Shown: positions 2,927 through 6,800, counted from the first letter of the stretch. The stretch: DNA of 27,094 bases from an uncultured Nitrososphaerota archaeon (GCA_964518475.1 CAZFGR010000019.1:1-27094); one strand, 5' to 3'. Numbers and translations: made by a program. The notes: a model not told the origin generated them from the sequence alone.

Positions 2927-4351
2927 CTATAGTGATGAAGCAATTTCGCGTATTCTTGCTAACCACTTATCTATATCTGCCAATAGTTTATTCTTATGAT
3001 CTTCTGAAAATGCGTTAGTACTTTTAAGATAGTCTTCTAATTCATTTATCGTAGCATCTATCTCCAATATCAGGGATTCGAATGCTTTTTCAGAGGATAA
3101 TAGACTGGATGCTTCCCTAAGATCACTCAGTATCATGTAAGGATTCATGTCAAGTTCGATCATATCTTTTATGGTGATTAATCTTTTCTGTACCTCCATA
3201 ACCAATAACAGTATCTTTCGGAATTTATCTCTCATTCTATTCCTTTCTCTAAGAAACTCAATCGTAGACTCGACTATAGCTTTCGCAGTATGTAATACGT
3301 AATTCCCTATATCATCGAAACTTGAGTCGGATCTGCCTAGAACTACTTTATTGTCTCTAATGGATACGTATAACTCAACGTATCTATCTGTACCCCTACC
3401 GGGGAAGAAAAGAGTAGCCTTCTTAAGAGAGTCGTTTCTTTCCTTTAACAATGCACCAGCTAGCATTAGTTGCTCAATTATTTTCCCGAACAGCTCTGTT
3501 TTATCTAGATTTTCGAAGTGAATCGTAGCTTCTTGATAACTGGGTTGAACTTTTATTTTCTCTTCTTTGGCTATCATTGGTGCTCTAGGTGGCTGTTTTA
3601 CAAGCATATGTAAAAGTCTGGTATTTTCGCCGATATTTTCTATCATGTCATAAGGCATTAAGAAAGCGATTGAACTGAGAACATAAGTTCTGGTACGGGG
3701 ATCAAAAGCTATTACTGGTGACCCATCTTTTGCAAAAGCTATAGATAGGAACTCTCCAATTGTTTTCAGAGGATAGATAGTTATTTGGGAGGGAATAATG
3801 CACTTAATACCATATGAGGGCACGGTTATAGTTACGAAATTTTTCTCGCTTCTCAAAGGTTTTGATACGTCATAGGCTATGGAGAGATTTTGTCTCCTCA
3901 ACAAGTTATTTAACTCTAGTATCTCTTGTACGCTTGCAGTAACTTTAGGAGCTATTATTCTCGGTACGGTTATTTCGTGGTGAATATAGGTAGGTTCTAG
4001 GATAAGTATCACATCAGCTTCTTCAATTTTTTCTGAAATCTCGTAACCACCTAACCTGACACCCGCTATAAGCCAATCGCTTACAGACCCTACTATGTAA
4101 GCTTTCCCTAGTTCGGGAGCACTTTCTTTAAATTCAATCATTTTGATATTTTCTGGTACTTCGTCCGCGATGATATCGATCTTAATAACTCCTGCTTGTT
4201 TTTTCACGGATAAAATAGGGTAATGTTTCCCATCAATTACCGCGAAATCTCCCGGCCTCGCCTCTACCGTTTTTTCTGTCTCTACTAAGATGCTTACTAT
4301 TCGATTCGCACTTTGCCATACCCTTATGATTTTGAGGAACAAAATAATCAC
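2927..4351 (-). CDS. Multidomain hypothetical protein: N-terminal beta-barrel, degenerate GIFT/IFT52/DUF4350-like (GATase-fold) domain, alpha/beta domain, C-terminal helical bundle
   Basis: 474 aa, overlapping the upstream gene's stop (GTGA). Segments EEADVILILEP, ELNNLLRRQNLSIAYD, PVIAF...YVLSSIAFL...ENTRLLHMLV resemble the GIFT/GldG pattern. The last ~110 aa are amphipathic helices. Domain calls are tentative. Confidence 0.45.
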   Translation of the reverse strand: MIILFLKIIRVWQSANRIVSILVETEKTVEARPGDFAVIDGKHYPILSVKKQAGVIKIDIIADEVPENIKMIEFKESAPELGKAYIVGSVSDWLIAGVRLGGYEISEKIEEADVILILEPTYIHHEITVPRIIAPKVTASVQEILELNNLLRRQNLSIAYDVSKPLRSEKNFVTITVPSYGIKCIIPSQITIYPLKTIGEFLSIAFAKDGSPVIAFDPRTRTYVLSSIAFLMPYDMIENIGENTRLLHMLVKQPPRAPMIAKEEKIKVQPSYQEATIHFENLDKTELFGKIIEQLMLAGALLKERNDSLKKATLFFPGRGTDRYVELYVSIRDNKVVLGRSDSSFDDIGNYVLHTAKAIVESTIEFLRERNRMRDKFRKILLLVMEVQKRLITIKDMIELDMNPYMILSDLREASSLLSSEKAFESLILEIDATINELEDYLKSTNAFSEDHKNKLLADIDKWLARIREIASSL

Positions 4352-5358
4352 CGAGCTTTACTCAAACTAAAAACATATTTAATTATCTTCCTGAAAATTT
4401 TTTCATCAATCCCCTTTGCTTGTTTTGCCAAGAAAGCTAAGCTGTCAAACGTTTTTAGGAAGGTTCCTATGAGTTCAAAGGAGTCTTCCTTTAGGCTTTG
4501 CCTCAATAATCGATTATAGAGCTTTGAGAGATCATCTTTTGGTGCTTTTAATCGTTTTTTCCCATCTATTATTTGATTATTAATCAGATCTATAATAACT
4601 CTATCAACTATTTCCTCAGCACTAGTAAAGGTTGATGAAAAAACGATGTTTAGTTCTTCTTGTAGAGGCTTTATAGAGAAAGAAGAGACAGAGATCTTAC
4701 TTCTTATAGAATTTGGTAGGAGGTAAAGGAGAATATCTATTAAATCACAGGAAGTCAATGCTTTCTCGGCAGAAATATCATATATGTCGATAGTATTCGG
4801 ATCTACGAGAAATAGTAACTTTTCCCTCCGAATAATACTTGATAGGATTACAGAGAGGAAATCAACGTTAATCACGTTGTCGACAACTTCCTTTATATTT
4901 TCTTCGATCTGTCTAATTGAGTCATGTAAATTCTTCAGCAACTCCCTTAATTCGATATATATGGGAGGGATTGATCCTAACGAGTATTCCTTTTTATGAA
5001 ATTTGACCAAGTATTTTATTGGGAAGTAGAAGTAAGATGAATATTCCTTTTTTAAGAGGAGGATATGTGCGTGCTGTCTACCTGGTCGCCCAAATTCGTC
5101 CTTACCAGCAATTGTTACAAAGCTGATAGCTGTCGTCTCGTTAGGGAGATTAAATATTCTTAACGCGGCTTTAAACGGAATTTCTGGACTAATATAAAAG
5201 TGTTTAACTAGAGCATTTCGTACTATCTCTTCTTCAGTCTCCTGATCCACATTCGTTGATGAAGCTACTATTCTGTAATCTCCTCCATGACCAGATGTGT
5301 AATGAAGTTGATCGATCCGGAAGCTTTCTGGAAGATTAATCATCATATCCTTCGCCAA
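4348..5358 (-). CDS. GAP1-N2 (+GAP1-M)-like / DENN-like GTPase-associated protein
   Basis: IDQLHYTSG..GDYRIVASS and GKDEFGRPGRQHAHILL resemble the GAP1-N2 motifs QLxYTS and DxxGRxGNxxxH. The later LSVILSSIIRREKLLFLV...ILLYLLP...SVSSF resembles the GAP1-M/cDENN core. It lies directly downstream of a GTPase. Confidence 0.6.
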   Translation of the reverse strand: MAKDMMINLPESFRIDQLHYTSGHGGDYRIVASSTNVDQETEEEIVRNALVKHFYISPEIPFKAALRIFNLPNETTAISFVTIAGKDEFGRPGRQHAHILLLKKEYSSYFYFPIKYLVKFHKKEYSLGSIPPIYIELRELLKNLHDSIRQIEENIKEVVDNVINVDFLSVILSSIIRREKLLFLVDPNTIDIYDISAEKALTSCDLIDILLYLLPNSIRSKISVSSFSIKPLQEELNIVFSSTFTSAEEIVDRVIIDLINNQIIDGKKRLKAPKDDLSKLYNRLLRQSLKEDSFELIGTFLKTFDSLAFLAKQAKGIDEKIFRKIIKYVFSLSKAR

Positions 5359-5397
5359 TAGAATACTCGTTATAATCGATACTTCCTTAAAATATTT

Positions 5398-6090
5398 CTA
5401 CATGTTTTCTATGAGCCATAAAAATGGCTTCTCAACATCTATTGGCTTGATCTCTTTTCCTTCCATTCTCAGTGTTTCGGGATCTCCACCAAATGCTGAA
5501 ACTGCGAAGAAAGCGAATTTTTTCACGTTTTTCAGGATATGCATTGTGTTGAATACCGGGTTTGTATACTGCCAGAATGCTTGTTGAGGATTATTGATTC
5601 CGTATAAGTCGTTTTTAGTAAATACGAATGCTATTGGCCTATTTGTTTTTTTGTTAAAACCTTGAGTGAGGTATTCAATGAATCGATACATTAGCCATAC
5701 TTGCGTGACACGAAGGTCAGGATCGGGACTTGGCTCTATTAAGAAGAGATAACCCTCTCCAATATCTATTAGAGCCCTAAATGTTGGTCCCATGCGTTGG
5801 ATCTCTCCACCAGCTAGATCATAAGTCTTTATTTCTAGTTTTCGACCATTTATTCTAAGAGATGCGTGAATGATTAATCTCTCACCAGGTTTTGTGGGTT
5901 GAGGCCCTTCTCCACGAAGAATCCAGCGCATCATTTCCATATAGTAGTCAAGCCCAGAATGGATCTTTATGTCACGAACAGTCATCATTTTTGAAAGCTT
6001 ATTGATTAGCATAACTAGGTATGCTGTTTTTCCTACTCCTCGTATCCCAAAAATACTTATGTTACGGGCCCTCTTTATGAGTGAAACCAC
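5398..6090 (-). CDS. TRAFAC-class GTPase (DO-GTPase2-like, GAP1-associated clade)
   Basis: G1 GIRGVGKT, G2 PQPT, G3 YDLAG, G4 TKND, G5 VSAFG. Clade-typical features are GKTxYLxxL, LFLIEP, PIAFVFTK, FFAVSA and C-terminal PFLWL. Confidence 0.88.
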   Translation of the reverse strand: MVSLIKRARNISIFGIRGVGKTAYLVMLINKLSKMMTVRDIKIHSGLDYYMEMMRWILRGEGPQPTKPGERLIIHASLRINGRKLEIKTYDLAGGEIQRMGPTFRALIDIGEGYLFLIEPSPDPDLRVTQVWLMYRFIEYLTQGFNKKTNRPIAFVFTKNDLYGINNPQQAFWQYTNPVFNTMHILKNVKKFAFFAVSAFGGDPETLRMEGKEIKPIDVEKPFLWLIENM

Positions 6091-6158
6091 TTTTCACCAC
6101 CATTAATAATCTATTTTTAAATCTACAATAAATATAAATTATTCCACAACCTCTATGT

Positions 6159-6800
6159 TTAAAAAAGGACTTTTATTCTCTTCCTTATAATCCACCTCAA
6201 GGGTTCGAATAGCTTCTTGATTTTTTCTCTCTCATCTATATTTATCGAGAAAGATTCATTATTAATGTCTAATCTTGCATTAGAGTAATCGAATATAGCA
6301 TAGTTCTTGAATCTTCCACTGAATGCCTCTATAAGATTATTTAATTCGTTTTTTTCAGCTAACATCACTAATGCCACGGGATCTTTCACCTTTGATTGAT
6401 AAATAAACAATCTCGTTGTCTTTGCTCTTATTATTAATCGCAAAATATGAGCCAACAAATCTTTGCTCATCTCGGGAGAAACAACTATTGCGAAACTGTT
6501 GAATCTATTCACATAGTTAATTATGTGGAAACTTAGCCTTGAGAGAGATACTCTAATGACGTAAAGCTCGAAAACAGCGTTTAAAGTGGTCATAGCATAA
6601 CAAATATATGTTGTCTCATCGATGTTTACTCCTTTCAAGAGCAAAGCCAACTTTTGGAAGTATTCACTATCTGTTCCATATCTAAAGAATCCTTCCTCTT
6701 TAGTCACGAGATAGTTCATCCACAGCAATCCTATAGCATTGCCTAGTTTAAGCTGATCAGTCAATATCAATAATTTAACCCTTCTAGCCATTTTCGTCAA
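6159..6800 (-). CDS. Inactive (pseudo-)GTPase paralog of the adjacent GTPase
   Basis: Colinear similarity with 5398..6090: EYFQKLALLLKG vs DYYMEMMRWILRG, DPVALVML vs RPIAFVFT, KNYAIFDYS vs KKFAFFAVS, EPLRWII vs KPFLWLI. G1, G3 and G4 motifs are lost. Start may be ATG 6791. Confidence 0.6.
   Translation of the reverse strand: MTKMARRVKLLILTDQLKLGNAIGLLWMNYLVTKEEGFFRYGTDSEYFQKLALLLKGVNIDETTYICYAMTTLNAVFELYVIRVSLSRLSFHIINYVNRFNSFAIVVSPEMSKDLLAHILRLIIRAKTTRLFIYQSKVKDPVALVMLAEKNELNNLIEAFSGRFKNYAIFDYSNARLDINNESFSINIDEREKIKKLFEPLRWIIRKRIKVLF

Follow-up and report, generated by a model that had tools for sequence, protein, structure and literature searches.

Four co-oriented genes (positions 2927–6800) lie in the window analysed here, a 27,094-nucleotide stretch of DNA from an uncultured archaeon, and raise the question of whether they encode a novel GTPase-based system and what such a system might do. 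A preliminary description, made from the DNA sequence alone, had interpreted them as an undescribed combination of an inactivated GTPase paralogue, an intact TRAFAC GTPase, a GAP1/DENN-like protein and a GIFT-like multidomain partner. All four genes were re-found on the minus strand (Table 1), together with their motifs and spacing: 68 bp between the pseudo-GTPase and GTPase genes, 39 bp between the GTPase and GAP1 genes, and a 4-bp GTGA start/stop overlap between GAP1 and the gene for its 474-aa partner. The true starts of the pseudo-GTPase and GAP1 likely lie slightly inside their open reading frames, at the ATG codons given in Table 1; the shorter form of GAP1 is the version on record. The larger gap between the pseudo-GTPase and GTPase genes, with its T-run and TATA-like boxes, suggests that the pseudo-GTPase gene may be a separate transcription unit.

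Table 1. Coordinates of the cassette genes and their direct neighbours in the window.
Feature	Position	Strand	Remarks
Pseudo-GTPase	6159..6800	-	213-aa ORF; ATG at 6791 is the probable start
Live GTPase, DO-GTPase clade	5398..6090	-	230 aa
Short GAP1	4348..5358	-	336-aa ORF; 331 aa from ATG at 5343
474-aa lineage-specific partner	2927..4351	-	without enzymatic signature
Mini A24 (prepilin-type) membrane aspartyl peptidase	6818..7291	+	PF01478, 39 bits
Stand-alone RAM (Lrp/AsnC ligand-binding) domain protein, 83 aa	2576..2827	-	PF01037, 49.5 bits

The 230-aa protein contained G1 (GIRGVGKT), G3 (DLAGG), G4 (TKND) and G5 (SAF) motifs, in agreement with its earlier annotation as an intact TRAFAC GTPase. 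Direct Pfam searches yielded 18.3 bits for DO-GTPase1 and 15.3 bits for DO-GTPase2, both below the cut-off of 27. An HMM of its family matched three Asgard GTPases that themselves exceed the Pfam DO-GTPase cut-offs: those of L068 (E = 9e-22; 52.9 and 49.6 bits in Pfam), L039 (E = 2.7e-13) and L037 (E = 7e-13). By these profile matches, the live GTPase is a DO-GTPase relative. Pfam detected a G domain only and no zinc ribbon, unlike in the GTPases of L068 and L038, which carry zinc ribbons. No other protein of the region was as conserved as the GTPase, which showed 57–80% identity within the genus; values of 79% and 71% were equal to or higher than those for the neighbouring enzymes ABC_ATPase (76%) and AcnX (49%). 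Its gene adjoined GAP1, on the upstream side, in all 12 loci for which the downstream flank was available.

GAP1 likeness of the 336-aa protein was borne out by a match to GAP1-N2 (PF20013; residues 15–114, 29 bits against a cut-off of 24, and 31 bits in the genome search) and by structural matches in the ESM Atlas to bacterial GAP1 N2+M clusters (language-model score 0.96; TM 0.65–0.75 over residues 13–336). The QLHYTS and DxxGRxG motifs noted earlier were found in this protein (IDQLHYTSGHGGDY and KDEFGRPGRQHAH). An invariant Arg91 is located in an AG.DE.GRP.R..AH motif that was kept across 12 GAP1s, compact forms and long Asgard ones taken together. GAP1-M (PF20014) gave no Pfam match at E up to 1; the family HMM, which aligned to the first 230–300 residues of long Asgard GAP1s, ran through the GAP1-M region of the L037 protein. 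The 336-aa protein is a GAP1 that consists of N2 and a probable GAP1-M-equivalent region and that, ending at residue 336, is devoid of the GAP1-C domain. Short bacterial GAP1s (N2+M, ca. 276–337 aa; Atlas clusters from Actinomycetota and Planctomycetota) share its length and, over the whole protein, its predicted fold (TM 0.65–0.76), but are bacterial and showed no sequence-level orthology to it beyond the Pfam domain.

The model of the 474-aa protein began with a small beta-barrel at the N-terminus, followed by an alpha/beta domain of low model quality, an alpha+beta ‘platform’ resembling BamC-N, KA1 and COR domains, and a C-terminal four-helix bundle. Its family is tiny and occurs only beside these GAP1 genes, at Njordarchaeota-type loci. 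A split-off GAP1-C was considered as its origin and rejected, since the family HMM gave no match to the C-terminal parts of long GAP1s (E values of 0.3 or worse).

These assignments do not sustain the earlier view of an undescribed system. Instead, the cassette falls within the GAP1-N2 ‘GTPase-centric’ systems (PF19975/PF19993, PF20013, PF20014 and PF20052; Kaur, Burroughs, Iyer and Aravind, eLife 2020, PMC7159879), of which it is a new and compact variant; their classical long form occurs in other Asgard genomes. Like those systems, it has a DO-GTPase gene directly upstream of a gene for a GAP1 with GAP1-N2 and, probably, a GAP1-M-equivalent region; upstream lies a second GTPase gene, paralogous to the first, and downstream a non-enzymatic fourth protein is encoded. 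The order of GTPase paralogue, GTPase, GAP1 and fourth protein is that of the classical Asgard example L039. In the published systems, two paralogous GTPases are found in 38% of cases, and the GTPase of the GAP1-N2 type usually bears zinc ribbons or TM segments at its N-terminus (PMC7159879). In contrast, one GTPase of the cassette is dead and neither has a zinc ribbon or TM segment. Its GAP1 is only ca. 330 aa long and without GAP1-C, and an FNIII-repeat protein is missing: none of the four proteins had an fn3 match in Pfam (E up to 1), and the 474-aa model contained no FNIII repeats. Variable effectors and tubulin, Hsp70 or kinase themes are replaced by the orphan 474-aa family, and the cassette, which is not mobile, has been inherited vertically within a housekeeping locus.

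The 213-aa protein adopted a Ras-like G-domain fold in its AlphaFold2 model (pLDDT 84), and the top 50 matches of both Foldseek and VIA-align were GTPases only. Its motif positions were collinear with those of the live GTPase, and G1, G3 and G4 were all substituted (aligned letters TDQLKLGN, IRVS and AEKNE). Since these nucleotide motifs were equally degenerate in its orthologues, of which that of L044 keeps a GK remnant, the protein was classified as a pseudo-GTPase, as had been proposed. It carries the C-terminal EPxxW motif of the DO-GTPase family.

Interface prediction, which the preliminary description had suggested as a check, paired the pseudo-GTPase with the live GTPase at an ipSAE of 0.78, against 0.01 for the best control. 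Values at this level were attained for 58 of 80 solved complexes and for 2 of 110 mismatched pairs; these counts calibrate the result only roughly, since custom alignments went into the heterodimer model. At least 95% of contacts agreed between runs, and partner pLDDT was at least 81. Within the pseudo-GTPase, conservation was higher at the interface residues (0.41) than elsewhere (0.25; permutation p ca. 0.013). In the predicted complex, a conserved helix of the pseudo-GTPase (residues 43–56) would contact the live GTPase on its switch II/alpha3 face. PseudoGTPases such as CENP-M and the p190RhoGAP domains, the RagA/B-RagC/D heterodimers and MglA with MglB/Roadblock offer analogies, in that a nucleotide-free G-domain paralogue partners an active switch GTPase, although their homology to the cassette is no closer than the TRAFAC fold. 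The modelled contact, between switch II/alpha3 of the live protein and an alpha1-insert helix of the dead one, differs from the C-terminal roadblock dimer of Rag proteins and from a canonical G-face dimer.

Co-occurrence in other genomes was found: the triad of GTPase, GAP1 and 474-aa genes recurred in the same order, with gaps of at most 50 nt or overlaps, in about nine diverged lineages, which indicated that the arrangement is not due to chance. The triad was seen in at least three different genomic contexts. The pseudo-GTPase gene was mostly located directly upstream of it, was detached in two lineages and was not found adjacent in a third (triads without an adjoining pseudo-GTPase gene: G001, L044 and the G008 lineage). 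All well-supported clades were common to the GTPase, GAP1 and 474-aa trees, without component shuffling, and the same 474-aa family was present in every lineage. The cassette, single-copy in the genome of the window and flanked by syntenic housekeeping genes, was detected in one sister family and in five of the six genomes of the genus, the sixth being 66% complete; a search of 390 other genomes of the phylum did not find it. It has so far been seen only in Njordarchaeota-type Asgard archaea of one order. A Roadblock-like gene, scoring below threshold, occupied the corresponding position in the sister lineage.

The reading that we prefer, with a probability of roughly 0.55, is that the cassette works as a cellular, GTP-controlled assembly switch and is a compact form derived from the DO-GTPase/GAP1-N2 systems and passed on vertically. 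We infer each functional step, since no experimental test of any DO-GTPase/GAP1 system member was found in the searched literature. The core would be a tightly packed three-gene operon for the DO-GTPase, the short GAP1 (N2+M) and the 474-aa protein as a scaffold. The live GTPase would bind GTP and, because it has Arg at the position of Ras G12 and Gly or Ala at that of Ras Q61, would probably be inefficient at GTP hydrolysis on its own. GAP1 may dock on it, with Arg91 of the GRP motif as a catalytic finger or a sensor of the nucleotide state. With the dead paralogue bound to the live GTPase, the pair would correspond to a double-GTPase dimer in which only one half is active. Translationally coupled to GAP1, the 474-aa protein may replace the FNIII, GAP1-C and effector parts, its platform and four-helix bundle coupling the switch to a target.

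DO-GTPase/GAP1-N2 systems have been described as conflict systems (PMC7159879), and the cassette could accordingly be read as a working anti-virus or conflict system, in which the rapidly evolving 474-aa protein (and GAP1) would detect an invader, with the two GTPases setting the threshold and an unrecognised effector responding; this effector could be the adjacent A24 membrane peptidase or the 474-aa protein itself, acting through assembly or sequestration. Besides family membership, this somewhat unlikely alternative can draw on the nSTAND3/TPR NTPases that adjoin the classical long-GAP1 systems of other Asgard genomes, on a TnpB gene next to the cassette in one lineage (G005), on the co-conserved neighbouring TM peptidase, and on GAP1, the 474-aa protein and the pseudo-GTPase evolving about five times faster than the GTPase, a difference that would likewise suit a sensor engaged in an arms race. 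The earlier statement that no nuclease, peptidase or TM effector is recognisable held for the four proteins, in which Pfam identified no nuclease, pore, TIR or caspase domain, and PADLOC gave no matches to defence systems; it overlooked the divergently adjacent, co-conserved A24 membrane peptidase. Lack of a killing or enzymatic effector, vertical inheritance at a constant position between housekeeping genes, near-universal presence in the genus and the very conserved GTPase favour a domesticated cellular switch that arose from a conflict-type ancestor over a mobile defence island, and so do the unshuffled trees and the constant 474-aa partner. A further proposal, that the cassette is a forerunner or analogue of eukaryotic trafficking modules, in which a small GTPase would be acted on by a DENN/longin-type GEF together with a GIFT/IFT52-like scaffold, is very improbable, and nothing was found that connects the cassette to such modules. 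An Atlas-model search with the 474-aa protein did list matches at TM 0.28–0.34, among them an IFT52_GIFT/ABC_transp_aux cluster (TM 0.28) alongside GH42M and BatA. These matches are to a very common alpha/beta fold, and the GIFT-candidate region was modelled by AlphaFold2 at pLDDT below 50 (residues 162–214 and 226–272), with no GIFT match from that model and none in Pfam (PF23355/PF09822); the modelled GIFT likeness is weak. Searches in Pfam (E up to 1) and profile searches of PDB sequences revealed no DENN, longin or GIFT match, the 336-aa protein having no PDB sequence match of any kind at E < 1, and the Atlas structural neighbours of the 336-aa protein were exclusively bacterial GAP1 clusters. 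Moreover, the GTPase falls into the prokaryotic DO-GTPase clade rather than with Arf, Rab or Rag, and restriction to one order is a misfit with an ancestral eukaryote-like module.

The A24 peptidase, which retains both catalytic Asp residues (D42 and GGGD98), was divergently paired with the pseudo-GTPase gene in all eight loci that contain the latter (the window, L002/L060, L035, L013/L065, L066, L067, L044 and L051), including the two where this gene and the triad lie apart. This constancy, the triads without an adjacent pseudo-GTPase gene, and the T-run and TATA-like boxes before the GTPase gene are consistent with a pseudo-GTPase that functions outside the triad as a partner of the peptidase, for instance in type IV pilin-like processing or surface-filament assembly, its adjacency to the GTPase gene being inherited synteny. 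Such a role appears doubtful for a DO-GTPase paralogue with EPxxW that takes the position occupied in classical systems by the second GTPase, and for which a high-confidence model predicts binding to the live GTPase via a conserved helix. The two assignments of the pseudo-GTPase, to the peptidase and to the triad, are compatible with each other. Membership of the peptidase in the system is uncertain: as the only A24 match in the genome, it may be a plain housekeeping prepilin peptidase, which also speaks against its being the effector of a conflict system. A tie between the cassette and this neighbour is only a lead. The more specific form of the switch reading, in which the live/dead heterodimer and scaffold steer a membrane or surface process and are linked through the pseudo-GTPase to the sole A24 peptidase, is quite unlikely. 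If it is true, type IV pilin-like proteins might, for example, be processed or positioned in this way, and the cassette would be a functional analogue of MglA/MglB polarity control, the sister family using the Roadblock-like protein instead of the dead GTPase.

Downstream, on the other side of the cassette, the RAM gene, which was missing beside the 474-aa gene in G005 and the G008-type lineage and is probably in mere synteny with it, adjoined the 474-aa gene on either strand in the window, L002, L003, L015 and L040–L045.

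Four co-oriented genes in the window encode a pseudo-GTPase, a live GTPase, a GAP1 protein and a 474-aa partner (Table). The ORF coordinates agreed exactly with the spacing reported in the preliminary description (intervals of 68 bp and 39 bp and, between the last two genes, an overlap of 4 bp, GTGA), and the motifs quoted there were present in the translations of the four ORFs. The host genome measures 2.33 Mb and is 91% complete, with the window as its contig C19. The GC content of the cassette region (0.33-0.39) was only slightly below that of the remainder of the window and gave no sign of recent transfer. 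Searches with PADLOC and NCBIfam yielded nothing useful, and a promoter and terminator scan, which applied bacterial-type models to an archaeal host, was uninformative. Downstream of the cassette, the genes for a RAM protein, a 157-aa orphan and an ABC-class ATPase formed a syntenic block in several relatives.

Table. Location of the cassette genes, their neighbours and related loci. Plain coordinates refer to the window; L-numbers denote loci in genomes or metagenomes and G-numbers denote genomes compared.
Feature	Location	Strand	Remarks
Pseudo-GTPase, 213 aa	6800..6159	-	ORF listing
Live GTPase, 230 aa	6090..5398	-	ORF listing
GAP1, 336 aa	5358..4348	-	ORF listing
474-aa partner	4351..2927	-	ORF listing
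Stand-alone RAM-domain protein	2576-2827	-	88% identity to nearest relative's
157-aa orphan	1702-2175	-	
ABC-class ATPase (PF09818/MRB1590-like)	2-1675	-	
Mini A24 prepilin-type peptidase	6818-7291	+	PF01478
Mini A24 peptidase elsewhere	L002:102-701, L035:1747-2157, L013:5363-5776, L051:4913-5323, L044:7701-8108		
Roadblock-like gene	L055:164-781 = L054:8708-9229 = L034:2816-3355	+, +, -	Sub-threshold Pfam
Intermediate relative, metagenome	L068:1175-4289	+	428-aa DO-GTPase, then 607-aa GAP1
Classical long-GAP1 loci (832-1552 aa)	L039, L037, L016, L017, L018		Genomes G068, G028, G017, G013

The similarity of the 336-aa protein to GAP1, proposed in the preliminary description, was confirmed by a Pfam GAP1-N2 score of 29 bits, above the cut-off of 24 (31 bits in the genome search), and by matches in the ESM Atlas. 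There, bacterial GAP1 N2/M families were the nearest clusters in language-model features (0.96) as well as in structure (TM 0.65-0.75 across residues 13-336); short GAP1 forms of 276-337 aa were among the neighbours. In Asgard GAP1s of the long type (832-1552 aa), the family HMM aligned to the N-terminal 230-300 residues. Together, the Pfam, Atlas and HMM results indicated that the 336-aa protein is composed of GAP1-N2 and a probable GAP1-M-equivalent region, without GAP1-C. An alignment of 12 compact and long Asgard GAP1s showed retention of the motif AG.DE.GRP.R..AH, in which Arg91 was invariant and through which GAP1 may act on the live GTPase. A split GAP1, in which the 336-aa and 474-aa proteins would jointly represent one long GAP1, was rejected because the 474-aa HMM failed on the C-termini of long Asgard GAP1s. 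When the PDB sequences were searched with profiles of the GTPase, GAP1 and 474-aa families, nothing scored at E below 0.04.

The 230-aa protein carried a full set of G motifs, with GIR(G/A)VGKT as P-loop (residues 15-22) and DLAG(G/A)E as G3 (residues 91-96). Direct comparison with Pfam DO-GTPase1/2 remained sub-threshold; the family HMM matched the GTPases of loci L068 (E 9e-22), L039 and L037, all of which passed the Pfam DO-GTPase cut-offs. Its closest non-compact relative, at 26% identity, was the L068 GTPase, which had a C-terminal zinc ribbon (Pfam DO-GTPase 52.9 and 49.6 bits) and was followed by a sub-threshold N2+M GAP1 of 607 aa. In Ras-like proteins, the combination of Arg at G12 with Gly/Ala at Q61 accompanies loss of GAP-stimulated or intrinsic hydrolysis. 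The live GTPase would probably hydrolyze GTP only weakly by itself, since an invariant Arg and a Gly/Ala occupy the positions of Ras-G12 and Ras-Q61, respectively.

GTPase-centric systems have been described as combining a DO-GTPase, present as two paralogous copies in 38% of cases, with a GAP1 that has N, M and C domains, to which the N2 type adds an FNIII-repeat protein; they show variable effectors and mobile neighborhoods and occur in 'a few archaea' (Kaur et al., 2020; PMC7159879). Other Asgard genomes contained this classical form, with two DO-GTPases followed by a 1108-aa GAP1; some of the classical long-GAP1 loci adjoined nSTAND3/TPR NTPases and an FG-GAP repeat protein. The cassette had its GTPase/GAP1 core and gene order in common with these systems but lacked GAP1-C, FNIII, zinc ribbons, TM segments, effectors and mobility, and it added a dead GTPase and an orphan putative scaffold. 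It is therefore a variant of the published GTPase-centric systems, previously undescribed as such, rather than the undescribed system that the preliminary description had proposed. No paper on the compact cassette was found in the literature searched.

The triad of GTPase, GAP1 and 474-aa genes kept its order, with the genes at most 50 nt apart or overlapping, in about nine diverged lineages from genomes and metagenomes (GTPase identity from 80% down to 42%); at least three genomic contexts were represented. Among 400 genomes from 85 genera of the phylum, the genus of the window and one sister family were the only sources of orthologues, the genus having them in five of six genomes (the sixth being 66% complete); word-indexed homologue searches had a reach of 2-3 proteins only. 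Well-supported clades in the trees of the GTPase, GAP1 and 474-aa proteins were all held in common, with GAP1 and 474-aa branches about five times as long as those of the GTPase. Operon-level conservation with co-divergence is shown, as are the homologies of the encoded proteins. Identity to the nearest relative was 79% for the GTPase, 76% for the ABC-class ATPase, 88% for the RAM protein and 51% for DUF2070, as compared with 42% for GAP1, 43% for the 474-aa protein, 40% for the pseudo-GTPase and about 30% for the A24 peptidase; identities to genome G001 were 71% (GTPase), 49% (AcnX) and 29% (GAP1). Judged from this comparison with neighboring genes, constraint on the GTPase is housekeeping-grade, while its partners are fast-evolving, yet not beyond neighboring membrane proteins.

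The dead GTPase has a G-domain fold. In hhalign, an improved alignment matched it to the live GTPase over 110 collinear columns (E 0.005), as compared with a 24-column match in a first, three-sequence comparison; its HMM repeatedly returned in-register matches to live GTPases (E 0.002 to 0.0003), and a C-terminal EPxxW motif was present in it as in bona fide DO-GTPases. A language-model search with the pseudo-GTPase gave no usable match. Complex prediction, applied to the GTPase/pseudo-GTPase pair, returned a confident interface (ipSAE 0.78, best control 0.01). Of 80 solved complexes, 58 attained this score, as did 2 of 110 mismatched pairs; these counts calibrate the present pair only roughly because custom alignments were supplied. 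Contact agreement between runs was at least 95% and partner pLDDT at least 81. In the model, switch II/alpha3 of the live GTPase lies against helix 43-56 of the dead one, whose interface residues were conserved above the rest of the protein (p about 0.013). The prediction supports binding of the pseudo-GTPase to the live GTPase as a live/dead heterodimer.

No family was assigned to the 474-aa protein by Pfam, NCBIfam or PADLOC. When 1.84 billion representatives were searched exhaustively by profile, no more than 12 clusters reached E<1e-30; their lengths were 419-477 aa, except for one 116-aa fragment. The single weak outlier, protein P0018 (E 3e-5), which matched through its helical tail only and belonged to an unrelated AAA/subtilase operon, was rejected as a member. 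The structural model (overall pLDDT 69) comprised four parts, among them an N-terminal small beta-barrel, an alpha/beta domain that was unreliable at residues 160-270, and a generic four-helix bundle; the protein may act as a scaffold. Metagenome contig L059:1-1018 carried an identical 459-aa partner gene without GAP1 upstream and diverged from the other contigs inside the GAP1 gene, reflecting either an assembly chimera or a rearrangement.

Attribution of the pseudo-GTPase mainly to the A24 peptidase is consistent with the divergent position of the A24 gene next to it wherever the pseudo-GTPase was seen, including pairs detached from the triad. Its gene was separated from the triad in L044, by 2.3 kb on the downstream side, and in G001, where it lay on another contig. 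The mini A24 peptidases (133-160 aa) retained both catalytic aspartates, and the window gene was the single A24 (PF01478) match in its genome. In seven lineages, the pseudo-GTPase gene immediately preceded that of the GTPase. In view of the predicted interface, we regard attribution to the A24 peptidase as improbable. In the sister family (G008, L054/L055), a gene for a 173-205-aa protein, with only sub-threshold Pfam matches to Roadblock families (Robl_LC7, E 0.017; MAPKK1_Int, E 0.13), directly preceded the GTPase in the pseudo-GTPase's place. A weak 196-aa pseudo-GTPase-like match adjoining RpiA in G008 (E 1.9e-4) lacked supporting context and was discarded. A eukaryote-like DENN/GIFT reading of the partners is very hard to credit: its sole basis for GIFT was a TM of 0.28-0.34 between the Atlas model of the 474-aa protein and GH42M, BatA and GIFT-type clusters, and the 336-aa protein is a GAP1. 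On the evidence here, the cassette has no bearing on the origin of eukaryotic trafficking.

That the cassette is a working conflict system, as its shared core with the GTPase-centric systems might suggest, is a less likely but serious alternative; effectors and mobility are absent, and the triad is conserved across lineages. We favor, with a probability of about 0.55, a domesticated GTP switch, and infer a cellular rather than defensive role. The cassette also suggests that, in an Asgard lineage, a module regarded as immune can be maintained on the chromosome and passed on stably and vertically, which bears on the recruitment of switch GTPase modules into cell biology. DO-GTPase/GAP1 systems are widespread, yet knowledge of them comes from comparative genomics alone. 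With four soluble proteins of 213-474 aa, the cassette is roughly the smallest of their self-contained versions, and its small size and freedom from zinc ribbons, TM segments and effectors make it convenient for biochemical study of the effect of GAP1 on the GTPase and of the contribution of the dead twin.

In Ca. Njordarchaeum guaymaensis, the wider context of the cassette was unlike that in the window, and a TnpB/IS605 OrfB gene (L013:9904-11307, minus strand) lay directly downstream.
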